From positions 434,001 through 498,000 of the forward strand of contig OY253672.1 in assembly GCA_958009085.1 (NCBI GenBank): 64,000 bases of DNA. Direction: 5' to 3'. The notes below the pieces were generated by a model. It was not told the DNA's origin and made no database searches. It worked only from the letters and a program-made list of their open reading frames with translations. Within the stretch, counting starts at the first letter, position 1. Every line of letters starts with the position of its first letter. This document shows positions 5,101-56,118 of the stretch, piece after piece. Source of the DNA: Protoeuglena noctilucae (Eukaryota). The position numbers and the translations under genes were made by a program.

Positions 5101-7820
5101 AGTCGCTGAGCCCCGCGCAGTTCCACCGGGCGAGGAGGATCATTGTGGACGCCGTGCTGGACACGGACATGGCCGCCCACTTCAACAGGTGACTGTTAGT
5201 GTTATATGGATGCGTGACTTTTTGATTAGTGTCATGTGTACTCATCGTCGACGCCGTGCTGGACACGGACATGGCATGCCACTTCAACAGGTGATGGGCA
5301 CTGGCACTTCTTTAGGTGATCAGTGGTTTTTGACCAGTCGAACATAGACAGACGCACGTCACTGTTAATTCCGTCGCTCACCCTCTCTCACCCTCGCTCA
5401 CTCACCCCTCACCCCGCCCCTCCCCCACGCAGGGTGGCGGAGCTGGAGATCGTCGCGCGCGACGCCTCCTCGAACCCCAGCGCCCGCCGCGAGGGAGAGC
5501 CCCCCGCGCCCGACATGCTTGCCGTGGTCACGGGGGAGTCGCCAGCAGCGGCGGAGGCGGCGAAAAGCGACGCGACGGGGGGGCCACGGTGACTGGCGCA
5601 ATGCGGCGCAGTTTCTACTGATAACACCGTTGACATGATTGACGCGTGCTAACCCGTGCCAAGGTGACGATGTGCCCCAGCACGCCCACTCACCCACGCC
5701 TGCCCCGTGCTTCCGTCTTGCAGGCTGAGCCCTCCCGAGGTTCGCGGCATTTTGATCGCCTTACTGCATGCCGCTGACCTGGGAAACAGCTTCAAGCCCG
5801 TCCACTTGCACGCCAAGTGGTCGCTGCGAGTGATGGAGGAGTTCTTTGGAGAGGGGCGGCAGTTGCAGGTGAGGGTGGGTGGGGTGGGCGATAAGACATG
5901 GGGCAGCGTGGCATTGAAAGGTAGCGTTGTGTGCAGGCAAGCGTGGGGCACGGGTAGGGCATGGGGCATCTCATCCCCGCACCCACCATAGCTCCGCACA
6001 CGCACCCCGCCCCTGATGCACCCCCACCCGCAGTCGCTCCGCGTGCCCATTCCACCCCTCATGGACCCCCAGCGCTGCTACCTCCCCGGCTCCCAGCTGG
6101 AGTTCTTGGACATCATCGCCCGGCCCCTCCTTGTGACCCTGTCTCGCGTCCTGCCAGAGACGGCCTTCACCCTCGACGCCCTCGGGAACAACTTCCAGTT
6201 CTGGACGGGAGTGACTCTGCTCGACAAGAGGGCCGCGGGGGCCCCGGAGCAGTCGGGCAGGTCCTGGCGCGCGCCCCACCGCCACCACCCCAGGAGCCAG
6301 GTGCTGGCGTCGGCGCGCTTCAGCGTCAACCCGCTGTCCCCGCGGGGGCTGGACAGGGTCTCGCCGCCGGCCCCGGGTGGCGCTGCGGGGGCGACAGGTG
6401 GCGCGACGGGTGTGGCCCCGGCCAGCCCCGGCGGCGGCACAAAGGCGGTCCATCGCGACGGGGCCGCTGCGCCGTCCCCCGCGGACCTCGTCAGCGCCCT
6501 CTCGATGCGACTGGGCCTCGGGCCCTTCACCGCGCGTGCGGGGGGGGCGGACGGGGCCGGGGGTGCCCCGTCGCCTGCCTCCGCCCCCCGCCGGCGGTCG
6601 GTGACCCACATCCGGCCGCAGGAGACGAGCGGGAACAGCGCGGTCGAGGGAGCGGGGAGCGGGCCAGCCGCGGCGCCCGGCACGCCTGGCGACGACCGGC
6701 GACCGTGGGGCGACAGCGACGGGGCCGCCGGGGCGCGGGGTTCGGTCCTGGGCCGCAGGCAGCGGCTGGGGACCCTCGCCGACGCCTCCAGCATGCCGGA
6801 GGGCCCGAGGGGTGGCGCGGGCAGGTGAGGGGGCGTGCGCGGGCGGCCCGCATGCCTGCGACACCCACAGTTGCGGTTCGTGCCAAGTCATGGCTCCCGC
6901 AGACGACACTTTTGGGTATATGGTCACCAGGCGTTCCAGCTCAGTACCAGTCGCCAACGTTCACGTCCCGTGCCTCTGTCGTGCTCCCAGGCTCCGGGCG
7001 GGTGACACCCCTCAGTCTCAGCTGTCCTCCCGCAACTCCGTCCCCAGCACCAGCCGCCGCAACCGCCACTCGCACTTGGGCGCGCTGTTCGGCGCCCATT
7101 TCCGATCGTCGAGGAACGAGGCGGGTGACGGGTGGGGCACGCTCGACACGGCGGAGTGGGCCATGCACGTGCTCACCTGCTGCATGCTGGGGGCGGCGCC
7201 CTTTGACGGCGGCGACGACGCGGTTCTCACGGTGAGGGTTGGATTGAGTAGGCATGCGCATGGCGGAGTGACTGGTGAAGACGGTGAGGGCGGGCGTGGA
7301 TGGGCGTGCGTATGGCGGGGTGACTGGTGAAGACGGTCGTTTCCTTACCTCACCTTTCTCTCCCCTTCCCGCCCCTGCTACCGCAGCTCCAGACCGACCC
7401 CGGCAAGAGCCAGGCCATCTGCGCTGACGCCCTTCAGCTCGTGGCCGCCATCCTCAGCACCGGCGTCCGGGTCGTGCCCCAGGTGACGTTTGCTGGCACT
7501 TCACTGGCTGTTCACTGGCTGTTCACTGGCGTCCGCTTGCGATGCTGTCGCTGTCAGCGCCCCACCTCCCCATCCGTCGCGTGAGTGGTTGTGGGCTAAC
7601 TGCACAGCACGATCGATGACATCACGAGATACATCAAGGCATGCCGTCCCTGCACCCACCGCTAGGCCATTCTCGGGCAAAGCACGTTGCCGCCTTCTCC
7701 CCTGACAGGCATGTCCCGTCAGGCACAGCACGTTCGCGTACCTCCCCGCAGGTCCTGGCCACCGAGAGCCAACTGACCCGACTGCGGCAATTCTTGGACA
7801 GCCTCGGACCGAGCCCGTGA
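2115..7820 (+). CDS. Multi-transmembrane class I cyclic nucleotide phosphodiesterase
   Basis: Spliced exons give YNDNPYH|RWAHAVDV, HDVGHKGLSNAF (PDEase_I signature), LDTDMAAHF, HAADLGN, WSLRVMEEFF and SQLEFLD. The N-terminal exons are hydrophobic. Start and last exon (..LDSLGPSP*) are inferred. Confidence 0.88.
7499..7530. repeat. 11-bp intronic tandem repeat (ttcactggctg) x~3
   Basis: Seen directly. Confidence 0.8.
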
Positions 7821-7873
7821 GAGGCCGAGCGCAGCCTGTCAACAGCGGGGGCGGCTCCGGACCAACAGCGTCC

Positions 7874-8078
7874 CAGCAACAATTTTCACACAAGCGCTTT
7901 GGTTGAGACCAAGCGCGGGCAGCCCTTGCTGCAAGAGCAGCCAAGAGCGGCCTGGCAACAGTTCCCGTACAAGCGCTCCGCCCCGTGTGACCAAGCGAGG
8001 GCGGCCTCAACTGCACGAGCGGCCCCGCAACAGTTTTCGCACAAGTGCTCCGGTTCCGGCCCGTGCGACCATACAAGC
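7874..8078. repeat. Degenerate ~72-79 bp tandem repeat x3 downstream of the PDE
   Basis: gcaacaattttcacacaagcgct (~7876), gcaacagttcccgtacaagcgct (~7955), gcaacagttttcgcacaagtgct (~8027), each followed by gacca..aagcg. Confidence 0.7.
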
Positions 8079-9067
8079 GGTTCGACTCGGGGACAAGTGT
8101 CGACCCCAGCGCTGCGCAACGCGACCTTTTGACTGCAGTCGGGATGCGCGGACCCCCTCGCATCCCGGCGTAGACGCACCCCGTGGTCCTCACCCGTGCA
8201 CTCCTGTGGTACCCTGCCCTCCGTCGGTGTTGCCTACCTACAGGTGGGTAACCCTGACCGTAGCCCTTCATCCAATCGACTCCGGTTCCACTCTTGTCGC
8301 ATGCTGCGATCGATGTCGCGTCCACTGCGGCTCCCAGCGCCGCGCAGGCCGGCCCAGTGCCGCCCTTGCGCAACACCAAATGCGCAACCCTAGCGGCCAG
8401 TCCCGGACTCCAGCTCGCAGGGCCGGCGCGGCCCTTTTGAGTCCCCCGCCAGTCTGCGCCGCCCTAGTCCCGCCATCGTCTCTCAGCCTTGCCTCGTCGC
8501 AATGCGTTAGACGGACCCTGTGACCCTCACGCCAGCCCCGGCGTGCTCAGCCACCTTGCCGATTTGCGTGCGTGGACAGTGGCTGCACGATTCCCCGACA
8601 ATAAGGATCCGTTCCACGTGTCACCTTCCCAGTTTTGGTTTCTCACTGACTGCGCTTCCGCGATCGCTTTGCGATGCCCGGTGCCTGACACTTGGCCCCT
8701 TGCGTGGTCCTTGGCATGCATGCGCGCACTTGTTACATGTGCTCGTGATCAAGAGTTCCAATATGCTCTTGAATGAAGCCCTTTGCCTGCTCTTGCGCAA
8801 ATTGACAGCTTGACATTGGAATTGAGACGGACAGCGCCCGCCACGCCGCCACGGCATGCATGCCACGCACCCTGCTGCTGCAGTGAGCCAGCCTCTCAGG
8901 GGCTACGATGAGTTACTCAAGAGCCCACTCCTAGCCTAGCTCCTCAGTGCCACAGGCGCTGACACCCAGCTTCGCTTCGCTCGACTGCTCCCCTGAGCTC
9001 AGCTGCTCCCCTCCACACAGCTCACTGCTTTCTAAGCTCAACTGCCCTCAGCTTATCTCTTCTCCGC

Positions 9068-12000
9068 TCAGCTGCTCTCTTCCACTGCGTTTTTCTCGGC
9101 GCCGTCGCCCCCACTGTGCTCCTCAGACCCCATCCCTTCACCCACAGTCCCGTCTCCGCCACACGCACCCTCACCCCCGTCAGCTGCGCCCTCACTTTCA
9201 TCAGCCCCACCGTCACCCCCGTCGCCCCCACCCTCACTCCCATCAGCTGCGCCGTCATCCCCATCTCCCGTCCCACCTCCCTCATGCCCTCCCGACACAT
9301 CCCCTGCCTCTTTCACATCCTCATCACCACCCGCCCCATCATCCACACCCTCACCACCCTCCTCATCCCCTCCTGCAGCCCCATCACCGCCCGCCTCATC
9401 CGCACCCTCGCCACCCCTCTCATCCACCCCCGCACCCTCCCCAACCCTATCACCCTCACCCTCCCCGCCCCCTCCCACTCGCCCACCCCCTCTGACCCCC
9501 TCCAGCGCCCCCACAGACACCGACGCTGCCGCCAAGGGGTGGCTCTCCCTCAGTCGCGCATACAGGTCCCCCGCACGCTGCAGGGCGCCGCTCAGGGCCA
9601 TCGCGCCCTCCCGGCACGCCACGCTCGGCACCCAATCCACCGCCCGGCTGTTCAGGGCCCAGCTGCCGGCCCCCGGCCCGGAGTCGCTGTTGGTGTCGCT
9701 ATCGCCACCTTGCTCCACTGCGCTGGGCCGCTCGGCGCCCGGGGGCACGTGGGGTGCGGGTCCGACGGGGCTCTGCCGGGACCAGGCGGGCCCGGATCCG
9801 AGCAACTGCACGGCCTCTTGCCTGGGGTGGGGGTGGGATGCGTGGGTGGGGTGGGTGGAGTGGGTGGCAGGGGATGAGAGCGTGCGTGGGTTGGGATATC
9901 TTACCAGCACCCCTGCTCACCCCATCTTACTAGCGCTTCAAATCACTCCATTTTATCACCACATCCCCTCACCTGACACGCGCCGCCTCGTTGAGCCCCC
10001 TGGCCATAGCCTGGCAGAGGGCCTCGTACTGGGAGCGCAGTTTGTGTTGCGCCGACAGCACGTCCTGGAGCACCTCCTTGGCCTCGTGGACCTGGGGGAA
10101 CGTGAGGTGCTGTGGTGACGGGTGATAGATAATGGATGCATGGTATGCATGCATGTGACCATGGTACGGGAGACATGAGCGATGCAAACGCGGAAAGGCG
10201 AATGTCACCCTCACTGCCATCACCGCCACTTGTTGACATCAGCATCACCTTGCTCATCTGCTCCACTTGCTCCGCCGCCCCCCGCAGCTGCCCCGCGAAC
10301 CACGACGCGTGCCCCAGCTGAGACTCCACCTCGTCGCACAGCCGGCCCACTTAGCGGGCACCCGACCGCATCAGAGCCTGCGGATGAGGCAGATTATTAT
10401 GTGTTGATTACTCACTGGTAGTACTACTGGGATTACTATCAGACTCTGGTATCACATGAACATGACATGGGGCGACGTACGAGGCCAGCAGCGCATCAGC
10501 ACACACACTCTCTCTCCACCCCACCTCCCAATCACACCCACGCACCTCCGTTGACGACAGTTCGTCAGTTAACAACCCACACACGCTCCACCACCACCAC
10601 CACCACCCACACACCCACGCACCTCTGTCGACGACAGCACCCCCGCCCACACGCGCCCCCTCCTCCTCTCCTGGGCCCTCTGGAACGCGGACATGGCCTC
10701 CGACACAAACGCCGCGCAGTGTTCGATGGCTTTACGCTCGGCATTGTGGTCCTCCGCCTGGGCAGCCAGGGTTTCGTGCTGCGGGGAGGGTGAGGGCGGG
10801 GAAGGGCAGGGGTGGGGAAGGGGAGGGGTGAGGGTGGGTGGGGAGGGGTGGTTGGGGAGGGAGGGGAAGGGGAGGGGTGAGGGTGGGTGGGGAGGGCGCG
10901 GGAAGAAGGGGAGGGGTGAGTGCAGTAGGGTGGCGGCTGTGCACCTTTGCCATTACACTCATTCCCTTCGCAGCACGTTCCCTCACCTGCGCAATTATAC
11001 TCCCCAGCACGTTCTCTCCTCACCTGTGCGATCAAGCTCCTAAGCACGTTCTCGTTGGCGGCCACGAACGCGTCCCTCTCCTGCACCGCGGCACTCAATG
11101 CGCGCTGCCGGTCGCCGAGCCGCGTCTCCACGGCTTCAAGGGCGTCCAGGAGACGGCGACGCTCGGCCTGAAGGTCCGAGACCTCCTGTGATGTATGGAA
11201 GATGAACAGGCGGTGTAAAGGTGAGCAATGACAGTGGAAGGGTGAGCGCTGCAGGTCCGACACCTCCTGAGAAGCGGGAGGGATGCACAGGGGTACAGTG
11301 AGAGGGTGCGATGGATCACAGCGAAGGGGTCAGGGATGACAGGGAAAGGGTGAGCGACGACAATCGATGAATCAGCAACAGTTCAAGGGTGAGCGGTGCC
11401 AATGAAAGCACTTAACATGTCCGCCACCGCTGCCCCGCCCACCCCACCCGCCCCCACCCCCTCGCCTGCCGCAGCTGCGCCGCCCTCCCCTCCGTCTCCT
11501 CCACCCGCTGCCTGCGGAATCTCTCCCCCTCGGCTTTCTGCTGCAGCACGCTCGCGATGCGCGCACGCACGCCCTCGTCGGAGCTCTGCACCTCGGAACC
11601 CAGCCCCGCCAGCGCCGCCAGAGCCGCTTTGAAATCCAACGCCGCCCTCATACCCTCTCCATCCACGCCCAGCCCCAACCCCACGACACCCACCCCCGCA
11701 CCGCCGTCGCTGCCCCCGCCGTCGCCCACCGTGGCCTGTGCTTGCGCTGCGGACTTTGGCTGCGTGCGGCTCGCTGCCAGTGCCGCCACCAGGTCTTCCG
11801 CCGCGTCTGCTGCCTCCTCTGCTTTGGCGTGGAGGTCCGCCAGCGCCGGCAGGTCCAGGGCAGGCGGATGCTGGGAGGCAGGAGAGGGGAGCAGGGGTCG
11901 CAGGGGTTGGCAGAGGGAGTTTGGTTGGTACATAGCATCCGCTGCTCATTGGCAAGTCACAGTGACCACACTGCGACCACACCGCTCGCTTGCATTACCT

Positions 12001-13569
12001 GCACTTGCCTCTCACACCTCCCCCGCACACCCACGCTCCCACTTCCATGCACCCCCCGCACGCGTATGCTCTCACCTCGCCTTCCGCCGCGCCGTGCTCC
12101 TTCAGCGCCCGCAACACCTCGTGGGACCGCTGTGCGCACACGGCATGGGACCGGTCCAGGAGCGCGTCCTCTTCCAGCGAAAGCACCGCGCGCAGGCACA
12201 GGTCGGTGAGCTCTCCCGGGGCCACGGCCACTTTGCGGCGGTGGTCGAGGGCCAGGACGCCCGCGGCCTGGGGAGATGGAAGGGGGGGTTGGGGGATTAT
12301 GAGATGAGATGTGGAGGGATGGGTTGACTAGGGCGGTGAGAGTGACAGTGTGAGGAACTGCTGCCTTGGAATCAACCACAGCACCCCTAAACCCACTCAC
12401 TGCACCCTCACTCACTCCCTGCATCTCACAGCACCGTCACCCCCACACTGCCCCTCACAACACCCCTCACTCACTTACACCGGCCCTCTCCCCACTCGTC
12501 ACATCTAGCCCCTCACCACGATGAGCCCCGCCAGCTTGGCCCCCATGGCCCCGCGCGGGTCCTCGCCCTCCCCCGAGCTCCCCTCGGGGCTGCCCACGGT
12601 CAGCCGCAGCGTTGCGGCCAGAATGGCCGACAGAGACCGCTGGTCCTCGGGGTCAGTGCTCGGGGTGGTGAGGAGGGACGAGACGAGGGAAGCGAGGGCG
12701 GGGGAAAGCAAGAACACCTCACGGAAATCTAGAGAGAGGCCGCTGCGGGTCTGGAAGCGAGCCTGGGCCGCCTCGGCAGCAGAGACCGTGAAACCCTCCA
12801 CCGCGTCACGCGGCCGCTCGCGCGACAGGCTCAGCTGGCTCCAGCCGTCGCCCTCCGCGCCGTCCGCGTCTGCCTCCGCCTCGCGCTCCGCGGCGTCACG
12901 CTCGGCGCGGAGCTCCGTGAGCGTAGCGGCCCAGATGCGCAGCGCGCGGGTGCGCTCCGCGCCCTGCGCGGTCGTTGCCACCCTGCCGAGGCGCTCCGCC
13001 GCCTCTTCCGCGGTCGGAATGCGGCGCGCGCCCGGCGCGACGGCCAGGAGCTGCTCGGCCAGGTAGCCTGCGCTGCGCGTGTTCTGCGGTTTCCCGACCA
13101 GGGCCCCCGCGACGCGCCGGACGATGCCGACGAGGAAGCCACCGCTTCCGGAAGAGGGTTTCGATGCGGATGCGACGGGCTTGCTGCGTTCCGACGAAGC
13201 CGCGTCGTCCAACGAGCCTCGGGGAGGTAAGGGCTGTTGAGTTCCCCCGCCTGCGGGCGCTGCATCCCCTGGAGGACCCTGCGCAGCCTCCGCAGACTCG
13301 GAAGCCACGCCGACTGCGGTCGCTAGGTCCTCTGCCGACTCTGCGACGACGGCGTGTGCTGTATTCGTCCAAACTAAAAATCCCCCCTGGGGACGCGACC
13401 CATGCGGCCCCTGGGACGTGCTCGGCAACTCACGTGGACGTAACAGGTCCAGAGACGACCCCTGGGGCGTCGCGCTAGGGGTCTCATCGCTTGGTCGGGG
13501 AGCGGCCTGAGCGCCTGCCCTGGGCGTCTCGGGTGGGGAGTGGCTCTCGCTCATCGTGTTGTGCAGCAT
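9068..13569 (-). CDS. Long coiled-coil protein resembling the plant At2g37370/At5g13560 family; about 8 exons, with an apparent in-frame TAA at 10351-10353
   Basis: GAERTRALRIWAATL and LDFREVFLLSPAL resemble recalled plant motifs (GxERVQLLRRWL, FRDVFLxSxAL). Heptad-rich exons and an acidic tail follow. Confidence 0.6.
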
Positions 13570-13640
13570 GTACAGTGCACTGCACCATTCGATTCACTGG
13601 CCATCGGAGTGGTAGAAGGGACCTCCCAAGCTCGAAAAGA

Positions 13641-14633
13641 GATGGATGGCAGTGGCACGTTGTTCCTGCGCATCGTCCCGCGTCATCAGAGGCTCCCTGC
13701 TGAAGAACGGGGCCACCAGCAGCTCAATGACGACGTACTCTGAAGGACCATGAGCTCGGGCTGGGTGCACGTGGGTCGCACGCACAGAGGTGTGGTCGCT
13801 CATTTTCAGCAGCAAAATAGCCCTTCCCTGCGATTGGTGTGCATGCAGAGAGCGCCTCTTCTCTGAGTAGAACCTGTGGACCGCGCCTGTGCCTGCTGTG
13901 CAGGTGTTGTCGACCCGGCGCCTCCTCCGGCCAGCTGGGTCCAACCAGGGCCAGGCGACACAGCGGAGGAGCCACTCCGGGAAGATCCAGACGGCGCGGA
14001 GGTCCTCGAGGGCACAGCGTCTCTCTTTCGCGCCGACTCGGGGCACTTCGCGGGCCAGTTCCGGGCCGAAACGAGCGGGGACGCGTACGACGTCACAGGC
14101 GTGCCCCTCCACTTCGGGAACGAGAACGCCGGGGACCCGGACTGGGCGCTGTACCTGGTGACGCTGTCCCGCCGGGGCGCAGGGGCGCCGGAGAGCTGCC
14201 TGGCCGAGTGCACGGGGGGCGATGCGATGGTTCTTCGGCCCCACACGGACGAGAGCGCTGTGGAGGAGCCGGACTCGCTCGCTACCATCGCCAGGGCACG
14301 CTCGGTGAGAAGGCAATGGCTGGCTGGGGTCAAGCGCAAGTCGCACATGTCTGCTTGACAGTTGCCCGTCCCTCTGGCGCCCTGCAGCAGTGCGCGCTGG
14401 ATTTGGCTGTGGAGTTCACCTGCGAGACGATCATCACCGGCGCAAATGCGGAGGCATGGGTGGCACGGGCGCTGCCGAGGGTGGAGGACCCCGGGAGCGT
14501 GCTGGTGAACGTGGGGCGCGTGAAGGTGCACAGGGGAGGGGTGCGCTGCGAGCGCGTCGAGGGAGAGTGGGACAGCGGGGGCAGTGAGGACGGGGTTGAG
14601 CAGCACGAGGACGATTTCGATGGCTGGTTTTAA
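13641..14633 (+). CDS. Hypothetical protein (2-3 exons, start uncertain)
   Basis: ORF 13876-14358 splices (cg|gtgaga..cag) to ..LDLAVEFTCETII..EDDFDGWF*. Codon usage looks coding. Confidence 0.5.
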
Positions 14634-15065
14634 CCTGGCTGGCTAGGGTAGGGTTTTGGACGGACCGCACGTGGTGCGGAACGGGCTTGCATTCAAGGAA
14701 CGGACAAGCGGCTGTCCCTGCGGCGCGGCCGCGACTGCCTAAGACGTCGAGCATGCGCGTACACTGTCAACCAACCGGCCTGGCCGGTGCAACCTGGACA
14801 ACTGTGACACTTGCTAGTGCTGCAGGGGGCTGATGCAAAGCTGCGCAGTGCAGGAGGCGCGCATCATGTCAGAATCGAGATCCATGTTCCAGCGACACAC
14901 ATCAGTCAGGACAGGCAAGGGTCGTGGGAGGAATGCCACGATACCGGCGCGTCGAGAGCGGCTCGCGTCGATACCAGCGGCCGTCTGCATCTGCGGCGGC
15001 GCGTGCGGGCAAGCGGCCAGGGGTCGTTGGAAAAGCCCCAGCGCTGAAAACCCTCGTAGCGCCCC

Positions 15066-18000: not shown

Positions 18001-18563
18001 GCACTGCTCACCGACGTAGCCCGTGTACCGCCGCAGGAACGCCTTGGACGGCTTCTCGCCCCCGTAGAGGATGTCGCCGGTGATGGTGCCCACCGTCTTG
18101 CGCCCGGCCAGCAGGTCGAGCAGCGTGGTCTTGCCGCAGCCCGAAGGGCCCATCAAGCAGGTCATCTGGCCGGGAGCCAGGTACCCGTTGACGTTCGTGA
18201 GCAGCCGCACCGTCTCCTTCTGCGGGGCGCGCGGACGGGGCGGGAATGAAACGGACGAAGGTGCAGCTGAGGAATCCAGGCCGCGAAGCCGGCGGTGCGG
18301 TTCTCGCCTTGTTCTTGTGCGACGGGACTTCATAACACACATCGTTGAACGAGACCAACATGCCGCGCCACTTGGTTGTGGACGACGGCTCCTGAGTGCA
18401 GTCACGTAAGGCAAGCGATATCGAGGCCCTGGCTGCAGCCGGCGCGGCAGCCTCGCACGCCTACGAGTGGCGCATTGTGCATGTACGCACCACGGTCATC
18501 TTCTCCACATCGTTGGCCCCGTCGGTGCCCACCGCGGAGGGCGTCTTGCCGAAGCTGAACATC
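15066..18563 (-). CDS. ABCG (White/WBC-type) half-size ABC transporter
   Basis: Walker [10 protein letters not shown], signature [12 protein letters not shown], Walker B LFLDE|PTSGLD, H-loop TIHSP and a C-terminal ABC2 membrane domain ([16 protein letters not shown]). Confidence 0.95.
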
Positions 18564-35660: not shown

Positions 35661-36602
35661 ATGACGTCCCTGCCCGTTTGCGCTGTGTCGCGATGCGTCT
35701 TGACGCAAAGGAAGGCCCCGGGGTCGACAAGGGCCTCTGCCTTTGGGGGAGTGCGGCTGGCGAGGGCTGTTCAGAACGGGTGCAAGGTGCAGGCGTTCTT
35801 CAGGCGAGGGCCTCTGCCGGCGCCGCGGCGCCAGCCCAGAATCTGCGCATCCTAGTCAGCGTCTCACAGGCGCGGCGCTTTGGCGTGTGCGCTTCTCTCG
35901 CGGCCCTGCGTGCCACCTGATGGGACGGCTCCCGGTCGTTCCGATGCGCGGCCCTGCGGGCAGCTCCAAGCCGCGCAAGGCGGCCTCGTAGACGTCTCAG
36001 TCGCGAAGACATTGCGCACCTGTCCAACGACCCTTACGTGCCGCTCCCGGCAGGCTCGGGGGCACGAACGCCAAGGAGGGCGGTATCTACGGCTCCCAGG
36101 GCCGCGCGGACTACGAGGACATTGATCTGGAGCACTACTTCAACTACGTGGGGGCGCTCGCGACCGAGGGGACCTACGACCGCATGTACGCCCTGAAGGA
36201 CTCGGGTCTGGACCCCATCGATGCCATCCTTGTGAGGGGCTGGCTTGGCTGAGGCAGCCTCAGCCGCGGTGCGCCCGGGCCCGCGCGCGGTTGAGAAAGC
36301 TGCTTCGTCTCCCGCAGATCCTGGCATCGGAGGAGAACGACACTCCCAAGATCGAGGAGATCTGCGAGGCGGGGGCCGACACGTGAGCACGCGAGCACTG
36401 CCGCGTGTGCTGTTGCCAAGAGAGCCCCGCCTCAGCCCGCCCTCGCGACGGTCACGGCGCCGCGTCCGCGTCCTCGCATCGCAGGTCCGTGAAGGACCTG
36501 AACGGCAAGCTGCCGGTGCAGCTGGCGACAAAGCCCGAGACGGTCGAGACGCTCAAGCGCTACATGGCCAAGCAGGGCGTGGCGGTTCCCCAGGACGCTT
36601 AA
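35661..36602 (+). CDS. LTD: LHCP translocation defect protein (LTD/GDC1), plastid ankyrin protein
   Basis: GIYGSQGRADY..EHYFNYVGALATEGTYDRM..ENDTPKIEEI..AGAD..VKDLNG, with a transit-like N-terminus. Confidence 0.92.
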
Positions 36603-36673
36603 AGTGTTTTCATGTCTTGCGCTCAAGCGTTACATGGCCAAGCAGGCGGTGCCGCAGGATGCTTAAAGCGCCA

Positions 36674-37873
36674 TCATGTCTTGCGCTTCTTGCTGTTCTT
36701 GGCCATGAGGGCCTGGCAGTCGGGGCAGTACCAGTCCCCCACGGGCTCCTCGACGAGCCCCACGCATTCGAAGTGAAACCACTCGTACTTGCAGTCCTTG
36801 CCGTCGCACCCCACCATGGGGCCGAAGCTGGGACGCTGACAGATGCAGAAAAGGGGCTCGTTTGGATCGAAGGCTGCGGGGGAGGGGCGGTTAGGAACTG
36901 CATTGGTTGGGCAGCACTGACCCCGCTTATTGGGAACGCTGTTGGTACGAGCGAGGGGGTCAAGAGGTAGCAACCTGGCGAGGGTGCCGACACTAGACTG
37001 ACTCACCCTGGGCCTCCGCTGGTGCACTGGGAACAGGGACATCCGCTTGTGGCTCGGGTGGGGGAACTGGTGTTGGGGCGGGCATGGCAGGGGGAGGGGA
37101 CGGCACGGGAAGGTCAATGGGTGGGAGGGGCGGCATGGGCCGTGGTGCCACCTCGGGCATCGGCGGCATTCCCAATGCCTGCCGGTCCGCCTCGATCTGC
37201 GGAGCGCGGCGGGCACGCGGGACCTGCCTGTGGGCTGCGAGAGCAGAGGGGCTGAGGGGTCGCACGAGGCGCGAGTCATGTCCACTCACCAGCGTCGTCA
37301 GCTCCTCCAAGTCGCGGTCGAGCCGAACGATGTGCTTGTCGATGAGCTCGTAAGCCCCGATCGCGGCCCGCTGCTTGGCCTCCGACAGGCTCGTCAGCTC
37401 GTCCCACAGCGGGGAGTCCCCAGACCCCTCGTAGCCGTCCTCCTCACGCGCACGCTGTTCCAGTTGGCTCTGCGACACCCAAAAAACTTGCACCGCCCCG
37501 TGTGCCGGGTGTAGGCCGGGCAACGCGCTCGCGGGGCCCCGCGGTGGCAGGCCTAGCGCGGCATTCCAAGCTGCGCGGCGGGCAAGCAGAGATTCCCGCG
37601 ATCGAGCATCCCAACGGCAGACACAAGAATACAACGCTCTGTCAGTTCCAACTCACCTCCATCACGGCCCGCAGCTCAACGAATTTCCGGACACTCTCCA
37701 CGTCCAGCGCCCTGATCTCCCCGAGCTGCGGGAGACCGATACGCGGGAAGTTTCTCGCACAACGCGTTTCATTAACTGTCGAAGACGGCGCTCGCGACGG
37801 CTGCGCGGCACACCTTCTTCTCCAGCTGCTTCCCCACGTTGTCGAGATGGTGAATGTGGTCATACATTGCCAT
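36674..37873 (-). CDS. ING: ING-family PHD finger protein
   Basis: YELIDKHIVRLDRDL and DPNEPLFCICQRPSFGPMVGCDGKDCKYEWFHFECVGL..WYCPDC. Confidence 0.93.
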
Positions 37874-43810: not shown

Positions 43811-44226
43811 GAATTCGACGCTAAGTTTGTCGCGACGTCTCGCGCATAGGCGAGCAGGGCCCTGTCAAAGTTTACCCGCAGCCGGGTGGCGGGTCTTCCG
43901 ACGCCCACCTTGGCGCGGGCGGCTTGGCCCCGCGGCGGAACCCGGAACCGAAGGAAAGTGCGCGGCGGGCGAAAGACCGGGCACGCCATTGCTCCCTGGT
44001 GCTAACGAAGAGGGCCTGGGTAGCCTGGCTATCTGCGCTCGGCGCAAGGGCACGTCCCAGCTTGCCAAAGTTCACACGACGCGGCTGTGCTTGAGACGGC
44101 CTTTCTTGCCGCTGCTAGTGAGGAATCTGCCAGGGAGCGAGAACCCTACTGGTAATGTGCTACTTTGCCACACTGTCCTGCGCGATTCTAGCCCCAACAC
44201 GCTCGGCAGCTGCTGACGATTGATCA

Positions 44227-45590: not shown

Positions 45591-46483
45591 GCTCGCGGCG
45601 CTTGTGATCGATGTTGCAGAGGTCGCAGGCGATCGACGGCGGCTGCCCCTCCTATTGCATGACAAGAATGACATTCCCACGCGCCCAAGGCTCGGCAATG
45701 GCCCTGGATTGTCTGACGCCAGAATCCCGCGACCAGCGATGCGGCCATTTCCCCGCAGAGACTGCCGGTGTTGCTCAGTCTTGTCCCACATTTCCCACCA
45801 CCACCGAGTCCCTGGCTTGTGGCGGGGAGCCTGGCCTCGGGAGGGTTGGCCCGAGCATGCAGCGATGGAGGGCGCAACGATAGGAGAGCCGCGCCGAAGG
45901 GGACGGGTGCTCCTGCTCAACGCCGAGCTCAGGACCACGCAGGGAGCCCCGGCACTGGCCAGGCTGGGAGCGGAGCTGGAATGCGCCGGCTTCGAGGGTG
46001 TGTGGCCCTGCGAACGCAGTCGCTCGGCGCCGGTTAGAGTAGCCCTTTGTCATCTTATGACATGGATAGTCCTGGAGGGAGGGTGCCCACCGCGTCAGGG
46101 CGCGGTCGCCGGCCTGGCGCGACCGATTTCCCCTGGCGAGACCGAGTTCCCCCGCCAAGCCCGCAGTGCTCGCGAGCCCGGACCTGCAGGGCGCGCTGCA
46201 GCTCCTCAAATCCCACGCGCATGCGGAGGAGCGGTTTCGACTGGTCATTGCGTCCCAGGCGCAGCCCAGCACCGTCCGGGCCCTGAGGTGAGCCCGGTGC
46301 GCGTCGATATGGCACTTCTCGCGACCTTTATTCGCGCGTCTCATGATATCGAAATCGTCCTTTGTGCGTTGGGTAGAGCGTTGGACCTTCCCGCGTCCTC
46401 GCAGAGCTGCCTGCGCCTCGTACCCCGTCCCCGTCGTCGTTACGAGCCCGAGCCCCGAGCTGTGCCTCGCCGCTGGCGCGCTC

Positions 46484-49400
46484 ATGGCGTCGGAGGACAT
46501 ATTCGCCATGGACGACTTGCAGCCGCTCCTCGGAACCGAGGCAAATTGCGCACACGGGGCTAGCACGCTTGTTGGCTCCCGTCTCTCGGGGCCTTTTCAC
46601 GCCCGCCCCTCCCTCTCCGATCACAGGCACCGCATCCCTTCGGCGCGGTCGATCCCGCGCATCCATCCCGCTGCGGTCCCGTGACCAGCCTGCTGCGGCG
46701 CTTCATGCGCGTGCAGATCGACAGTGACGACCACGATGTCGCCTCCCGGTGGCCCCGCGCGGAGCCGCGCCCGCTCCTCGACTGGCTCTCCTCACCTGCG
46801 GCCCTCACCTCCGCCCACACGGACGCCGGGGACCCGGTGCGCGGCCGCGGGGACGCAACACGTGGCCTTTCCTGCCATGGTTGCGCACTGCTTGCCGACA
46901 CATCGCGCCTCCCGCCCCCGCAGGCGCCCCGTTCCGGTCTCGACTCCGCCCCGCTGCAGCGCGTGCTTCAGATCTTCTGCCAGGTCCTGGCGATGGTGGA
47001 CGGCGCCCACGCGCAGGGTCACCGCCTCAGCTCCGTGCGCCCCAGCCTCCTTTTGGTCGACGGCCTGGGCCACGTCAGCCTCGCCGCGGCAGCGAGCGGC
47101 GCTGGGCCGGCCGGAGTCGAGGGCGTCTCCTCAGCCACCGGCCTCGGCACCGCAAACGGGACCACGAACCGCGATGGCCCGACCGCCCACGCACGTGGCA
47201 AGGAGGCCTATACGGCACCCGCGCACGCGCGCGCGCCGTCGCTGGAGTCTCGCGAGGCTTCGAGCGGGATCCTGTCGGTCCCGGAGGCGGGAGACGCGGT
47301 AATGGCTGAGGCCTCCGCCATCGTTCCCCAGGGTCCCGGTCTGCAGGGGGTCGTGGTCAATGCCCAGGGCCCCGGCATCGCCATGCGGCCCCCGGCCCTC
47401 CGCGGCGCCAACTCCCGCGACCGAGGGGACGCGCTCTACGCGAGCCCAGAGGAGTCGGCGAGCGGTGCCCCACCGACGCTCGCTTCCGACGTCTTTAGCT
47501 TGGGTATGCTCCTGCTCGACCTGCTGTGGCACGCCGGGCACGCCGGCGGACGCGGCGCTGCCCGCCCGGGCGCCCCGCCCCGCCTGGGCCGCCTGGCGTT
47601 TCTGGCGGAGGCGAGGGACCGGGCGGTGGACCCTTGGGTGCTGGAGGAGCATCCCCGGGAGGCCTCCCTGGCCCTCACCATGCTGCACCCCGTCCCCGAG
47701 AGGCGCCCGGCCACGGCCGACCTCCTCCGCTCCCCCGTTTTGCTGGAGGTGAGTGCTTGGGGTCTGCGGCACACGCCACGCCACGTCGCCTCGCCACCAA
47801 GCATGCGGGCAGTCAACATGACCACCAGTGCATTGCCATTGGCACCTCTTCATTATACCGTGCTGCTGCTCTTACGGCGTTGCTCCCTGACTCGTCCTCA
47901 CGGCGTCGTTTAATCCCTGTACCCCTTCCCTTGATGCAGTCACTGGCATCGCTGTTGGACGGCGTGGCGGGGAAGGGCCTCGGAGACCTGGCCTGCGAGT
48001 TCGAGTCGTTCGCTACCTTCCTCTCCGAGCTCCGGCAGAGGCGCATCGCGGCGCGGCACAGCTGCCGGGCCAGGGTCGGGGCCCTGCGTGCCGACATCCG
48101 CCGCGTGAAAGCCGCCATCGCAGCGCTCAGCGGGGGCGCCCTGCGCACCCCCTCGCGCCCGCGCCTGGTCTCCATGCCCCCCGCGCCGGGCCGCGACGCC
48201 CTCCCCGCCCTCGCGGACGACTGCGAGGGGGCAGAGGGCACCGGGTCAGATGCGATGGGCATCGAGGGAGTCAGCCCGGCTGCATACGAGCCACGGACGT
48301 CGTTTGGGGCGGCGGAGGCGGTGGCAGGGGCGGACGACGACGACGGGCGGTCGGAGAGCAGCCACACGGCCAAGCGACGGCGGTGGGCGGGGCAGCAGGG
48401 GCAGCAGGGGTCGCAGGGGCGGGTGCGGCCGTTGGCGAGGGGCCTGTCGAGCACGGCATTCGCGGAGTGGGCGGATGGGACCGGGGACGAGGGCCCTGCG
48501 CCTTTGCCGGTGGAGGACGAGGTCCGGGCGACGGTGGCGCGGCGGTGGGAGGTGCTAAGGCACGTGGCGGCTCAGCTGGAGGGGACGGTGCTGCCCCGGG
48601 TGCGCGGTGCGGAGGGGGTGGCGGTGGGCGCGAGGGCTAGCGAGGGGAGCGGGGCGGGGCCAGCGCAGGGTTCGGGGGTTGTTTGCAGGAATCACGGGCC
48701 GCGGCAGTCGTGGGCGGCGGGGGAGTGGATGCCTGGGGCGGGTGATGCGGGTGCGGGTGTGGGTGCAGGTGACGCCGACCGTCTGCTGGCGGTGGGGTCG
48801 GATCTGCTGCGCTTCACGGCCACGTCGGGGCTGCGGGTGCGCGCGACCGTCAACCACGGCGACGTGATGGCCATGCACTCGATGGTGTGCTCCATCGCGT
48901 GCGACCGAGGTGAGGGGCGGGGCATGCGCATTACATGTCGTTGACATGTGGTTGTGGTCGTTGGTATACACTGCATATGAGGAACGCGATGCGTGCACTC
49001 GCCCCCTCTGTATAAGATCACGCGCCCCATACATCGCACCCCACCTGCCCACCCACCCACTCACTCACCCACCCGCAGATCACGAGTTCTTCGCCACGGC
49101 TGGCACGAGCCGCCGCGTCAAGATCTTCGACCTTTCCACGGTCCTGGACCCCGGCACCTTCATCCACTACCCCACCGCCGAGCTCGTCTCTCGGTCCAAG
49201 CTCAGCTCCGTCGCTTGGAACGCCTACATCAAGGGGCAGATCGCGAGCGCCAACTACGAGGGCGCCGTGCAGCTCCACAGCGCGGCCACGCAGAGAGAAA
49301 TTGCGATGTTTGAGGAGCATGGCCGGCGCGTGTGGAGCCTGGACTTTTGCGTCCCGGACCCCACGCTGCTCGCTTCCGGATCCGACGACGCCACGGTCAA

Positions 49401-50411
49401 GATATGGTCGATTCGCGAGCCCGCATCCGTCGCCACCCTCAGCCTGGGATCGAACGTGTGCGCCGTGCGTTTCGCCCCAACCAGCGCCCACCTGCTGGCG
49501 GCGGGCACAGCGGGGACAGCGGCCTTTCTGTACGACCTGCGCCACGCGGCGAGGCCTTTGGCGGTGCTGGAGGGGCACCAGCGTGCCGTGTCGTACGTCA
49601 GCTTCACGGGGGCGGGGGAGGTGGTGACAGCGTCGGTCGACAGCACGCTCAAGTGAGGGAGCGGGGGGGGGGGGGGGAGTGGGGTGTTGTTAGTGGGGGG
49701 GTTGGTGGTAGTGGGAGAGGGGGGGTGGAGAGGGTGGTTGATAGGGAGACATGGGTGGTGCCACTGACGTATCATCAGTGTGACCGTGGTCGAGAAATGC
49801 AACCACTTGCTTGACATGTGTATGTCCTACGTGCTCTGCTCGCAGGCTGTGGGACATCTCGGGCCCAGTCCGCGCGTCGGGGGACGGGGCGGAGCACGAA
49901 ACGGCGTCGACGCAGCGGGTGGCGGCACAAAGCACGTACCGGGGCCACGCCAACCGGGGCAACTTCGTCGGCCTGGCCACCACGTCCAATGGACTGCTGT
50001 TCACGGGGTCCGAGGACAACTGCGTGTACAGTGAGTGGCGGTGTTCCACACTGGAGAGGAGATGGGATGTGACGTGTCGTGGGGTTGATGTGCCAGCCAG
50101 TCGCTGTCGATGCTTGCGAGTGGAATCTCTATGATAGCCTTAGCAGCCATACAAAGGCACTGCCATTGATAGCCGACAATGACTGCAAACAGCGTCACTT
50201 CATCTCACGTGCCCCACCCCTCTCATCAATCGCAGCGTACCACAAGGCCATGCCGGTGCCCATCAGCAGGCACGAGATCGCATCTGTGGGTCACGAGGCC
50301 GACGGGCAGCCGGCCAAGGCGTTCGTGTCGGCACTGGCGTGGAGTGAGAGGCGGGAGCTGCTCTTCGCGGCCAACTCGGTGGGGGCAGTGCAGGTCCTGC
50401 AGACGGTGTGA
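46484..50411 (+). CDS. SPA: SPA-family protein (kinase-like, coiled coil and COP1-type WD40)
   Basis: SVRPS, LYASPEE, ASDVFSLG and MLHPVPERRP. WD40 region: DRDHEFFATAG, IHYPTAELVSRSKLSSVAWNAYIKGQIAS, EHGRRVWSLDF and LASGSDD. Confidence 0.9.
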
Positions 50412-50824
50412 GCTAACAACGTTTTGCGCAGATAGTGGACCTGGCATTGCGGATGGTAGCCGCAATGGTACGGCCCCGGGCTTTTGGCGTGCGCTTGCCC
50501 CGCCCCACTCGCCACCACCATTGTGTCGCTCTTTGCCACCCTTTGACTGAGTCTTGTCTTTCCTCGCCGCGAGTTTGAGAGATCACATGCTACTGCCCTG
50601 AGGAGCTCAGCATGGGAGCTTCATCAACACCCCGCATTGTGCTGGGAGAGCGCTGCCATGATGTGCGAGACTGGCGAGCGCTACAAGAGTACATATATTG
50701 GCAACACGACCAACATCGTTGTGTATTGAAAAGAGAGACGACCGTGCCGCAGTCATGTTAACAACAGAAACGATCACGACAGATAGACACACCCGCTCAT
50801 TACACCACCATGACAATCCACGAC

Positions 50825-52663
50825 CTATGCGGGTCCAGCCGAAAGGCTTGCGCGTTCCCGCTCTCTGCTCTCGTCTTGTGCCCTCCATGCACTGGCCAGG
50901 AAGCTCCCCATGAGCGAGTGCACGCATGCGGAGATGGCGCATGGCACGGCGGCCAGGGGGCCGATGTGCACGGTGGATAGCACGGCGCCCAGCGTCGAGT
51001 TCTGCAAAGGCAATGCAAGATTGGGGCACTTGTGTGTACAAAGCACTTGTTAGCAAGCAAGCCATGCGAGTGTGATGTGCGTGGCAGACAGCACTGCGTT
51101 CTGTTAGGACAGCCGATGGGTACACGGCACTTAGCTAGAGCAATTGAAGGCACCACCAGACCCTCAGTCACTAGACTGGTGACTAGTCTGACTCTGGACT
51201 AGTCACTCGCCTGCATGCCGACCTCGATGGCATTGGTGCCCATACATGGACCCTTCCCCACTCGCCTGCATGCCGACCTCGATGGAGTTGGTGCGGCACG
51301 TGCGCTCGTCCTGCCCCAGCACCCTCGACAGGAGGTAACCCAGCAGGAACCCACCCCCGTGCAGCAGCAGCAGGGCAGCCATCAGAGCAGGGCCGGCGGA
51401 GAGAGCGCCGGCTGCGTTGTTGGCAATCACGCTGCGGGTGCGGTGGGGAGAGGTGGAGGCATGTCGTGGCAAATTGAGTGCTGCTTTGTGCAGGCGACTG
51501 GGTGCGACGGTGTTAGAGAAAGTAAGGATCGATGGCAGCTGCGTGGCCTGGATATGATGGGAGCATTGACGAGAGTGATAACAGAGTAACCGACAACCCT
51601 CACCTGGAGGTGATGAGGGCGATGACGAGGGTGGCGAGGGGCGGCGCGACGGTGGAGATGGATGCGATGATCTTTGGCGCGGTGGTGTTGAGGAGCAGTC
51701 CCAGCGCGGTCGGCAGGAGCACCACGGCCACGATGTCTTTCAACAGCGCCCAGGCGTCGATGGGGACGAGCGTGCCTGCCAGTGCCTGCGTCAGAAACGG
51801 CGTGACGACCGCGGCCGATACGGTGCTGGTGAGGGTCATGGCCACGCTCAGCGCCACGTCGGCGCCAGCGATGAACGTCACCACGTTGCTGCGACAACGG
51901 AGGGGGTGCAGGGGGTGCGATGGAGTCAGATGAGGTAGCATCAGCCAGCAGTGTTGAGTCGTAGACAGCACACAGTTGCATCGACGTTGCATCAAACACA
52001 GTCGCATCACCCGCAGCTGCCTCACCTGGCCGTGCCCCCAGGGCAGCACGCGACCACGACCAGCCCCGCCGCGACTTGAGGGTGCAGGCGGAACGCCCGG
52101 GAGAGGGCGAACCCCAGCAGCGGCATGATGGTGTACCTGCATGGATCATTGAGTGAGCGAGGGCGGGATCTGAGATCTCCACAGGTAACGCGAAGCCATG
52201 CTGGTTGTCCCTGACATGCCCGTGCCACTCACTGGAGCACGGCCCCCAGCGCCACCTTCCCCGGCCGCTCGGCCACCTCGCGGAAATCCGAGACCTTCAG
52301 CGTCAGGCCCATCGCGAGCATCGTCGCGCCGAGCGAGTAGACGACGCAGGGGCCGCGGAACCACGACAGCGCGGCGGGCTGCCACAATGCAAAGGCGACG
52401 CCGGCGAACGTCCACAGCGGGAAGAGGTTTGCGACCCTGCCGCACACGTCCTCCAGGGTAGATGGAGCTGGTGATTTGGACGACGGACAGCGCGGCATCT
52501 CGCGAGGCCGTGGGGCTTCCCGCGAGCTTCGCAGGAGAGGGGCATCCCGGGCTGGTCGTGCATGCGGCACGGCCGCAGCCAGGGGCCGCGGGAACCGGCT
52601 GCGCGAGGCATATGGCCTCGCACAAGAAGGTATGCTCGCAATCGCCGGCGCTAGACCCGGCAT
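50825..52663 (-). CDS. Bile acid:sodium symporter family (plastid BASS1/2-like)
   Basis: MLAMGLTL, QYTIMPLLG, CCPGGTASNVVTFIA, SVAMT and SIEVGMQNS, with a transit-like N-terminus. Confidence 0.93.
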
Positions 52664-53258
52664 CGCGGCAGAAGCTCGCGAGCAGTGCGCAACGGCAAGA
52701 GTCGAAGTGTATTCCCGCGACGCTTTCGACGATCAGCGACCCAGCACGCTGCTGCCAGCTCGGTAGGTGTGGATTTGTGAGGCATTGTGCTCAACGGGAC
52801 CGATTGGCTGCTGAGTGGGTCAAAGCTTCTGACAGAGCAATGACAAACGACGACGAGGGCCTCTGACCCTCCGACCGGCTCGCAGTCTCAAAAGATTTCT
52901 CATAAGACAGCGTACATTCGTGCAGCTGGGACCTCACCGTGCCCCAAAAAGGAGAAGTTGCTCACAGGCGGGGGAAAAGGCCATTCCTGGCGCGCTATCG
53001 GCGGCAACTGGCCCGAAGGTGTGCATGGTTGCTCTGAATGATATCAGCGAGCGTGATCCCGAGACCGATTGGTGCGCTGCGGCTCCTCGAGCTCTCCCCG
53101 CTTGGAACCCTTTTCCCCACATTCGTACCCGTGGCCGGCCCCCGCGCGCCCACGTCGTGCCCGTGGGCCCGCTTTCTCGCATCGACGAACTCCCCCTCTG
53201 CCCACGTCTGCCGTCGCGAGTGCCATTCCCGCCAAAAAGCGCTGCTGAGTCTGCGCAG

Positions 53259-56118
53259 ATGTCGGGGGGCACGACCACCGTCCCCAGTGAGATGGCCCCC
53301 CTCTTGGAGGTGTTCCGCTCATACAACAGTTTCGGTCGGAAGGGAGACGCGGACCACATGGACGGAAGGTGCGCAGGCTGAGAGCTGGGCCCTGCGTAGA
53401 GAGCACGAGACGCTGCGGCGCCGCGTGCGGGCCGTCTGATACCCCCCTCGCTCTCCTCTCTCAGGACATTTGCGAAGCTCTGCAAGGAAAACAACCTTCT
53501 GGTCCCTCCGCTCCTCCCGACAGGTGGAAACCCCGCCATGTGCTTGTGGGAAAACGCTGCGCCAGCCACGCTCCGCATCAAGAGAGCCCTTGGCTTCCCC
53601 GCCGCGCAGACGCCGACCTCCTCTTCTCCTCCGTCATCCCTACGCCTGCCACCAAGCAGATCAACTTCAACTTGTTTGTGAAGGCCATTGACAAGCTCGC
53701 CGACCGTGCCCAGGGCAAGCTCGGTACGACCAAGAACGTCATTGAGGCCATCGTCAAGAACGGCGGGCCCAAGTCATCCGGTGAGTAGCCTGGCATGCAC
53801 GTGGGGGCACTGCGAACGCTGCGTCAACGGCGCATGTCACGATTGCTGAGAGGTGCACGAGGCTCGCCCCATGCTGCCGTGCTATGCAGGGACCAACCCG
53901 GAGGCGACGCGTTTCCACGACGACAAGTCCGCTTACACGGTGAGTTTGAATATGACGCACCTGGCTGCAACACGTCATGGCTGAGACACTCCACCTTCGC
54001 CTGCCCACCACCCACCATGTACCCACACCGTTACTTGGCCATCTCCCGCGGCGCAGGGCGTGCACAAGAACCGACCCGGAAACATCGACGCCCCCGACAA
54101 GCCCCTGCCCTCGAGCACGCCCTCCCAGCCGTCCATCGTTCAGACGCAGGCGCTCCTGCAGCGCCGCGCGTCGTTGCGCGCCAACCTCGACAAGGACAAG
54201 GAGGTGAGGGAGAGAGACCGGCACACACACGGACACATGCATTGCCATCCTCGACAAGGACAAGGAGGTGAGGACAAGGAGGGCGACACCGGCACACGCA
54301 CCGACATGCGCATTGGCACCAGCGGCCCCCGCACCCCACACCTGCACCGACACTCGCACCAGCACCCGCACCCTAACTCCTGCACTTACAGTAGTACTAC
54401 AGTCGCCTCTGAACCCACTCTACCATCCCCTGCCACAGGTGGATTTGGAGGAGCTGTTCACGACGTACTGCAACATCGGCAAGCGCCGGGACCAGACGTA
54501 CAAGATCATGGACAGCCGGGGCTTCCAGCACCTGTTGCGGGACGTGGGGGTCATCGGCAAGGGCTTCACGCAGGTCGACGCGGACCTGGTCTTCAGCAGC
54601 GTCCTTGTCCCGGGGGACAAGACCTGCACGTTCTCGCAGTTCACCTCGGCCCTGGAGCGCGTGGCGCAGCGGACCAAGGACTACGCCGACGTCGACGACC
54701 TCTCCGCCAGAATTGTGGCGCAGTACAAGGAGAACGGGGGGCCCATCCTCACGGGCACGCAGGCCGAGGTGCGTGCGGGGGCTTGCGGGGAACACAAGCG
54801 CTGAGCGCCGCTGCCGACGTGTGCGGGTAGTGGTTATGTCAGCGGGTCTCAACCACTCATTCGGTCGGGTGTGCCCATGGATTCGTGCATATTGGACCCA
54901 ACATGCGCTGGCATCTTGCTCTACGCAGTACACGCGGTGGCACGACGACAAGTCGACGTTCACGGGCGTGCACGCGGACAAGCACGGCGTGCCGCTGGAG
55001 AAGCGGCTGTCCGGGAGCATCAAGGAGACGAGCGTGTCGGCCGCCCCGGCCCCCGCGCCCGTCAAGAAGGCGTCTTCAAAGCTCATGGGCAAGACCTCCT
55101 CGTTCGTGGCCAGGTCGCAGGCGGCGATCAAGCCCGTGCCCCCCGAATTCCTGCCCCTCAAGGCGAGCCCAGGCGTGCATGCAAGAGCGGTGGGGGTACC
55201 ACAGCACCTCGCACGGACGCACGCGCCTGAGCTCTGGCCTGCTGTGTGCGCTTGGTCCTGCAGGCCGTGTTCGAGGCCTACAACTCTTTTGGCGGCAAGA
55301 AGGACATGGCCAACATGGACGGCCGCACCTTCGCCAAGTTCTGCAAGGTGAGCGGCATGCCGCCCGTGGCTGGCAAAGCCATGACTCTGAGGTGTAGATG
55401 AGAGGTGCAGATGAGGTGTAAATGACATAAGCATACGCGCTGAAAGGACTTCGTGAGGACTGCGTGGCTCGCAGGACCAGAAGCTGCTGGTGAAGCCCAT
55501 GCTCCCGACCGACTGCGACCTGGTCTTCGCGGAGGTGCTGACGGTGCCAGGGCAGAAGAAGATCGAGGTGAGTGCTTTGACCAAGTTACATAGTCATTGC
55601 TGCGTCCAGCTGCGGCCTGAGATCCGCGCACCGCTTGCTCGCACAAGCACAGTTCCGGGAGTTCATCTTTGCACTGGAGAAGGTCAACGGGCGGGCCAAG
55701 GGCAAGCTGGGGTCCATGGAGGACATGGTGACGAACATCCTGGTAAGAGAGGCGGGGGCTAGGGGCTCTCGCCGCGTCGTGCCTTTGCGCGGGGAAGGCA
55801 GCACTCGCCCGCGCTCCCACGCAGACCACGTTCAAGGAGACGGGAGGGCCTTCGTCCACTGGCACGGTGGCGCAGCCGAACAAGTTCCACGATGATAAGG
55901 ACCTGTACACGGGTGAGCGATCGGGAGCGGTCGAGTCGGCCACGAACGCGAGCGTCGACGGGGAAGCGACCGCATCAGTGCCTCAGCGCCTCCTCTCCAC
56001 CTGCGCGCAGGCGTGCACAAGAACGGGGGCCCCACGACCGTGGATACGGGCACGTCCGACTTGAAGTTCATCACCAACCGCGCCCCGGCGGACGTGCGCG
56101 GCGTCAACCAGGCGTGAT
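53259..56118 (+). CDS. Three-domain TPPP/p25-alpha protein
   Basis: Three units, each with MD[GS]RxF..DxDLxF..HDDKxx[YF]TGVH, joined by in-frame GT/GC-AG splices. Ends ADVRGVNQA*. Confidence 0.85.

Follow-up and report, generated by a model that had tools for sequence, protein, structure and literature searches.

Exon edges in a 64,000-nt stretch of the Protoeuglena noctilucae genome (G000:C5:434001-498000, at its full length called the window here; C1, C2 and so on are contig labels of this analysis) recur, splice site included, as diverged copies inside the adjacent introns. These echoes, reported in the first-pass annotation of the window, are head-to-tail duplications of at most 55 nt of an exon edge together with its splice site; they have sharp edges and a ceiling on their length, they cluster in G-skewed introns, and they diverge from their exons in the manner of coding sequence. 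This last property, a synonymous bias between exon and echo, is what the annotation missed: 60 echoes, covering 499 codons, carry 72.3 synonymous and 52.7 non-synonymous differences (pS 0.19, pN 0.047, ratio 0.25). Because the copies differ mostly at silent codon positions, they may well be repair scars between two diverged gene versions; the origin we tentatively favor, at just short of an even chance, is the repair of breaks from a diverged allele of the same gene, closed by end-joining.

Echoes of exon edges in the window

All six echo pairs of the annotation are found where it placed them; the copied exon part, given there as about 20-45 nt, in fact ranges from 15 to 49 nt. In the PDE gene (PF00233), the exon end with the GT donor in use at 5189 (5140..5192, forward strand; intron 5189-5432) returns 102 nt further on at 5242..5294, with a donor at 5291; 44 of 49 exon-side positions agree, and the codons differ by three synonymous changes and one Ala/Cys exchange. 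The Cys of the echo is the residue of one C14 paralog and the Ala of the exon that of another, so this site cannot be polarised. The intron start between donor and echo (5193..5241, forward) forms the spacer, whose likeness to the sequence behind the echo is unclear (p=0.11). On the reverse strand, a gene without a Pfam match, which the annotation took for a coiled-coil gene and which is called so here, is echoed at both kinds of splice site. Its exon end with donor 10622 (10610..10637; intron 10318-10622) reappears at 10533..10560 with donor 10545 (distance 77 nt, exon side 13/15, both differences synonymous); the exon end with donor 11023 (11018..11053; intron 10779-11023) reappears at 10981..11016 with donor 10986 (37 nt, 23/30, six differing codons: four synonymous, one Leu/Ile and one Arg/Gly); and the acceptor 11186 with its exon start (11168..11188; intron read as 11186-11465, the model being split by a 3-nt exon) reappears at 11249..11269 with an AG at 11267 (81 nt, 16/18, both differences synonymous).

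The BASS gene (PF01758), also on the reverse strand and with green-algal homologues (Picochlorum, 58%), has a GC donor at 51265 (51259..51294; intron 51002-51265) and a GC donor at 51210 in its echo (51204..51239; distance 55 nt, 27/29), the two differing by one synonymous change and a Ser>Ala replacement at a site that is Ser in all six proteins read, one of which, P0001, is this gene itself. The TPPP/p25-alpha exon end with donor 54204 (54180..54209, forward; intron 54204-54438) is echoed with donor 54268 and followed by a further short re-copy (54244..54281, the echo itself being 54244-54273); the distance is 64 nt, 23 of 24 exon-side positions agree, and the intron parts are still homologous (p=0.005). 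It belongs to two tandem TPPP/p25-alpha genes (53259-57683) with the same intron positions and unalignable introns; as a calibration of intron rates, the pair was discarded as too diverged.

The same synonymous signature is present at a stop-codon echo between two convergent genes (36550..36683, forward), where all four coding substitutions are synonymous, the 6-nt gap is in frame, and the joint shows a microhomology of 4 nt; at the other echoes, joint microhomology is indistinguishable from the echo alignment. This duplication spans the 3' ends of both genes, whose stops lie 7 nt apart, and its second copy reads as an alternative C-terminus. A plain tandem duplication, by comparison, is found at 7229..7332 (forward): it comprises 3 nt of exon, the donor and 49 nt of intron start, is alike at 47 of 57 positions, and has its first donor, 7232, in use.

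Further repeats in the window are a weak stop-codon echo behind the coiled-coil gene at 9068 (reverse; 16/18, distance 69 nt), a 32-36-nt element that occurs three times, in diverged form, in the intergenic DNA following the PDE gene (7867-8060; distances 72 and 151 nt), and a perfect 21-nt tandem repeat of 4.1 copies in a proline-rich coding stretch (1100-1186).

Presence in other libraries and use in RNA

That the copies are no assembly stutter, as the annotation held, is borne out by contigs from other libraries, which bridge the PDE, 10981 and 11249 echoes without differences. Contigs of run X4 cover 4720-10843 and 10867-12600, those of X5 (a 2016 metagenome run) 4500-5884 and 10834-11436, each with 0 differences, and X8 covers 10932-11350; X4 and X5 bridge all three of these echoes, X8 those at 10981 and 11249. 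The sequence of the 10533 echo is covered by X4, X5 and X8, and is joined to its exon only in X4. This check took in the PDE and coiled-coil junctions, the BASS and TPPP echoes lying outside it; since X5 and X8 possibly represent the same clone, it excludes assembly error and carries no information on fixation. More generally, the window sequence is present in sequencing runs that include marine metagenomes; some runs filed under the same species label contain almost none of its sequence words and do not count as evidence. A merger of haplotypes in the assembly would yield the same synonymous bias, and the echo-rich C2 and C8 blocks, outside the read check, do contain N gaps; the X4 and X5 contigs, however, bridge the window echoes with 0 differences, and no second haplotype occurs among the pieces listed. 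Such an artefact is thus highly improbable, as is its companion explanation, target-site duplication by mobile elements: the spacers form no family, and their matches elsewhere are low-complexity tracts. An introner or transposon with target-site duplication was rejected for the same want of a spacer family and for the variable length of the exon part (9-55 nt).

Use of the first donor is seen in RNA at two sites, 5189 and 7232. Contig 16 of RNA run X7 holds window position 5185 at 2246 and position 6030 at 2547, a spacing exactly as expected if donor 5189 is used and two exons of 156 and 145 nt are included, and it likewise fits donor 7232; the PDE RNA removes 5189-5432 as a single stretch. 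Database protein P0001 reads through the BASS donor 51265. No use of an echo site is seen in the RNA contigs, in which rare forms are dropped; the X7 pieces listed include no long one across 11186-11266, a hint that is not counted as evidence.

These data bear on the suggestion of the first-pass annotation that echoes create decoy or NMD-triggering splice sites, and on the reading built on it, in which selection maintains them, as decoys or alternative splice sites, for tuning expression via nonsense-mediated decay (NMD). In its favor, GT or GC is retained in 39 of 42 echo donors and AG in 15 of 18 acceptor echoes, echo donors score near the first donor, and use of 30 of 32 of them would shift the frame or meet a stop; the annotation's statement that all offsets do so fails at acceptor 11267, whose use would stay in frame and open, adding 27 residues without a stop. 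The retention of splice sites, however, is that predicted from about 5% decay, and the echoes do decay at conserved residues; the lengths of the RNA contigs agree with use of the first donors; at stop codons, an echo has no part in splicing; and silent downstream pseudo-donors are what first-site scanning leads one to expect (PMC1557585). Selection for a decoy function is thus very improbable. Mutually exclusive exons were rejected on reading the PDE, BASS and TPPP echoes, which have no usable acceptor of their own.

Frequency and location in the genome

The survey drew on about 1.03 Mb of DNA, window included, from a genome of 26.3 Mb in 27 contigs (about 66% GC), whose spliceosomal introns and BASS protein with its green-algal homologues point towards a green alga. 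A first scan covered 864 kb, namely the window and eight 100-kb blocks, on which the gene finder was also trained; it returned 1,854 introns with a median of 114 nt and 19% GC donors, and reproduced five of the six junctions of the annotation directly, the sixth intron being the one split by a 3-nt exon. Outside the window, gene models are predictions, and micro-exon models away from the PDE gene look like gene-finder errors. A share of about 19% GC among the predicted donors of this genome sample, the rest being GT, is itself high.

Under a strict criterion (exon-side score of at least 12), 1,849 predicted introns yield 16 donor and 9 acceptor echoes. Searching for the exon end in a different intron of similar length gives 0.3 and 0.0 instead, and shifting the anchor 40 nt inward within the exon gives 0 of 1,606 donors and 1 of 1,690 acceptors. 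A broader scan returned 57 matches in 2,051 introns; visual inspection removed 14 of these (matches due to chance or low complexity, items counted twice, repeats within proteins, and a single array, probably genuine, whose gene model was faulty) and left 43 events; a later block gave 19 matches in 163 introns, two of them dropped, adding 17 events to make the 60 analysed here. Two added blocks had been picked beside echo-rich regions, and the rate for unselected blocks is kept separate: 37 curated echoes in 1,847 introns, or about 2 in 100.

The distribution is uneven. Blocks on C1, C3 and C11 are free of echoes. Nearly all echoes come from the window and from C2, C8 and C14, where they sit in domains whose introns are long and lower in GC, start G-rich and end C-rich (4.6-12.5 kb in the window, about 490-530 kb on C2, about 230-390 kb on C8, and about 240 and 290 kb on C14); such domains also occur in the blocks that hold the N gaps of C2 and C8. 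Of 240 introns starting G-rich, 22 carry a donor echo, as do 6 of the other 1,607 (25-fold, p=2e-15); an acceptor echo is present in 6 of 168 introns ending C-rich and in 3 of the remaining 1,679. Single genes can be struck repeatedly: that at C8:381285-387058 (reverse), which we take to be beta'-COP, carries seven echoes, and that at C8:320946-326510 (forward), presumably a PRP16-like DEAH helicase, carries three. Beside an assembly gap at about C2:499,370 (reverse) stand at least four copies of an acceptor and exon start with synonymous differences, outside the counts here as the gene model failed.

Echoes are not confined to splice sites. On a reading of the 10 stop matches listed, stop-codon ends are echoed in about 6 of 397 genes, a rate similar to that of junctions; start codons give two matches among 396 genes, both by-products of stop echoes. 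High-complexity repeats within 250 nt number about 30 shared by an exon and an intron, 20 within introns (at least four of them from junction events) and 2 in intergenic DNA; 43 low-complexity intron-internal duplications were filtered out. Anchoring at the junction is expected of any tandem copy and is therefore no proof of targeting, and the process is probably not splice-specific: duplications survive where a complete coding edge remains on the outside. The junction-centered, intron-expanding process put forward in the first-pass annotation is upheld insofar as it recurs across the genome, strikes the same junctions again and lengthens introns, and is not supported as regards its centering on splice junctions. 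The annotation had held that equally frequent short duplications away from junctions would speak against it; those within introns are indeed also common, so this objection applies in part.

Divergence between exon and echo

The synonymous bias holds in both sets of events, with pN/pS at 0.27 (event bootstrap 0.18-0.38) for the first 43 and 0.20 for the later 17; it includes exon/echo codon pairs such as AGC/TCC (Ser) and CTA/TTG (Leu), and pairs of echoes lean synonymous among themselves (14.5/30, p=0.02). Decay confined to the echo is rejected with each of the five mutation spectra tried (p <= 8e-7); when synonymous drift on the exon side is added, p is 8e-5 with the spectrum that these data themselves show (transitions/transversions 23/23). 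An AT bias is absent at codon positions 1-2 (14/383 vs 16/369). CpG decay was discounted on theoretical grounds as the source of the bias at third positions, since positions 1 and 3 should suffer equally; C/G changes make up 12 of the 48 synonymous ones at third positions. Error-prone synthesis at birth, with selection acting afterwards, would demand far higher error rates than are known for repair polymerases, and a paralog as the source of the echo was rejected, none closer being found in G000 for the PDE, coiled-coil or BASS genes.

Likeness between the copies ends at the splice consensus. At donors, the exon, which is the side selected on, has an identity of 0.90-0.93; this slips to 0.85 at +3..+6 and then to 0.45 at +7..+10, the background being 0.31. 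Homology is nonetheless often retained between spacers despite strong divergence (15 of 40 reach p<=0.02), and the donor class agrees, all four GC first donors having GC echoes; one junction segment is therefore present twice. With a median gapped identity of 0.63 in the spacers vs 0.53 in the control, and only 3 of 40 spacers at least 85% alike (1 of 26 for echoes of at least 20 nt), the echoes are not a near-identical array of whole units as in a variable-number tandem repeat (VNTR). The far edge of the echo is sharp (likeness beyond it 0.26-0.34 vs 0.25-0.29), likeness on the exon side and in the spacer is uncorrelated (rho 0.01), and none of the 60 echoes exceeds 55 nt (exon part 9-55 nt), only two of them holding a gap.

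A rival account is ordinary short tandem duplication by staggered nicks, slippage or sister-templated repair, in which copies at exon edges survive and remain visible, their intron part, of simple sequence, loses likeness far faster than the part taken from the exon, and the exon drifts synonymously. Plain cases exist, namely 7229 and the three spacers at least 85% alike; intron-internal and stop-end duplications are of like order; the G-rich intron starts at which donor echoes are enriched may be slippage-prone; and when plain tandem copies are simulated with the same detection filter, the identity drop is matched if spacers change 6-10 times faster. This last requirement counts equally against it, as adjacent intronic DNA must then differ 6-10-fold in rate. 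The simulation further gives a synonymous fraction of 0.39-0.47 (summarised as 0.41) vs 0.58 observed, 20-25% of echoes should exceed 55 nt vs 0 of 60, and the two halves of an echo age without correlation. As a full explanation, plain duplication is thus possible and rather unlikely. The observed values lie between those of the two simulated models, plain and two-allele, and a mixture of both origins is therefore likely.

The uncoupled ageing of the echo halves would be explained by concerted evolution, in which old tandem duplications have their exon-like part refreshed by out-of-register pairing with alleles or the sister chromatid as the spacers diverge. A third copy is present at 17 of the 60 echoes, and in one array both echoes share the left joint with diverged spacers, as such refreshing would leave them. 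Conversion from the gene's own exon, however, would not be expected to enrich synonymous differences, and concerted evolution therefore needs diverged alleles too; nor does it account for the lack of residual likeness past the far echo edge or for the 55-nt ceiling. We consider it improbable.

A proposed origin in repair between alleles

Break repair templated by a diverged allele would proceed as follows. A broken end would invade the other allele within an exon, where the alleles are still alike, and be extended through the splice site into the diverged intron of that allele. With a break no more than about 55 nt from the junction, the homology remaining would not suffice for annealing to the second end, and the two ends would be joined by end-joining. 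The new outer copy would then serve as the exon edge, and the old edge, formerly coding, would be stranded in the intron and decay; selection would spare only those events after which a complete exon edge and its splice site remain. Loci of repair families in the genome, given for context as family-level matches with none identified to the gene, comprise two of the PolA family, Ku and two with TP6A_N.

Several observations weigh against this route. In simulation, the two-allele model overshoots the synonymous fraction (0.67-0.75 vs 0.58), needs introns to change 4-6 times faster than synonymous sites, and itself gives no length ceiling: both models place 20-27% of echoes above 55 nt, so that the ceiling needs a further cause, either an annealing threshold or selection against long copies. 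Of the 32 events in which at least two codons differ, only 7 are synonymous throughout, and several echoes show plain decay (Ser>Ala in BASS, Glu>Gly in a DEAH motif, C14 block 95014). The test against plain duplication weakens to p=0.008-0.18 under AT-biased spectra, and to p=0.03-0.18 under one that is transition-rich as well, and the set of events reflects visual curation of unvalidated gene models. The model also requires allelic synonymous divergence near 0.1-0.2, and no second allele was found: among the long pieces listed, X5 and X8 have 0 differences to the assembly, and no high diversity is seen. Nor did metagenome and protein searches with PDE, BASS and the coiled-coil exon, from which the cluster members of P0001 were left out, find relatives at strain level. 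A metagenome scan with the PDE exon gave two loci at 35-41% identity; the PDE protein search had no match at 1e-20, too strict a threshold; the BASS search returned the gene itself, with the next best at 74%; and the coiled-coil exon returned only the window's own protein.

Comparison with known systems

Four published accounts serve for comparison. In intron 7 (IVS7) of human F7, a 37-bp minisatellite spans the exon-intron junction, and its downstream pseudo-donors are intact yet silent, the first donor being used (PMC1557585). The echoes resemble it in that the unit spans the border, the downstream donors are intact (39/42), and splicing at 5189 and 7232 takes place from the first donor. F7, however, is one locus with many pseudo-sites of identical sequence, whereas the echoes come in two to three copies at about 2% of introns, include acceptors and stops, and show coding-type divergence and diverged spacers without a VNTR. 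For tandem duplications in brc-1 mutants of Caenorhabditis elegans, the model favored in the published study is D-loop extension followed by polymerase-theta end-joining (PMC7368036). The route proposed here (invade, extend, fail to anneal, end-join) would give a head-to-tail copy in the same way; there, the template is the sister chromatid, duplications span 1 kb to 1 Mb and the mutants lack BRCA1 function, whereas here the units measure 37-220 nt and the template would be a diverged allele.

In the hypervariable fungus Schizophyllum commune, crossovers between parents diverged by 14% fall in exons (PMC4209137), so that diverged alleles recombine there within conserved exons alone, as proposed here; crossovers there contrast with exon-edge duplications here, and hypervariability, known there, is presumed here. 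Intron gain by segmental tandem duplication, finally, also involves local duplication of splice signals, and makes a new intron (PMC3265369); an echo, by contrast, lengthens an existing one, the PDE RNA losing its intron as one stretch.

Implications

Short tandem duplications and silent pseudo-donors are thus already known; new are the allele-like divergence, the identity that ends at the splice consensus, and the ceiling of about 55 nt. No description of coding-biased exon-end echoes was found in the open-licence literature, subscription papers being mostly outside the scope of that search. For annotation, the practical consequence is that echoes mislead gene prediction, accounting for at least six false micro-exons or split exons in the models used here.

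The echoes could, as a still more tentative reading, be a fossil record of recombination between strongly diverged alleles, by which introns would have been ratcheted longer in particular domains. If so, one haploid genome would hold dozens to hundreds of snapshots of lost alleles, together with a direct measure of the minimum annealing length; and if the two-allele origin holds, introns would have a route of growth driven by outcrossing between diverged strains, and sex and diversity would be revealed from a single assembly.

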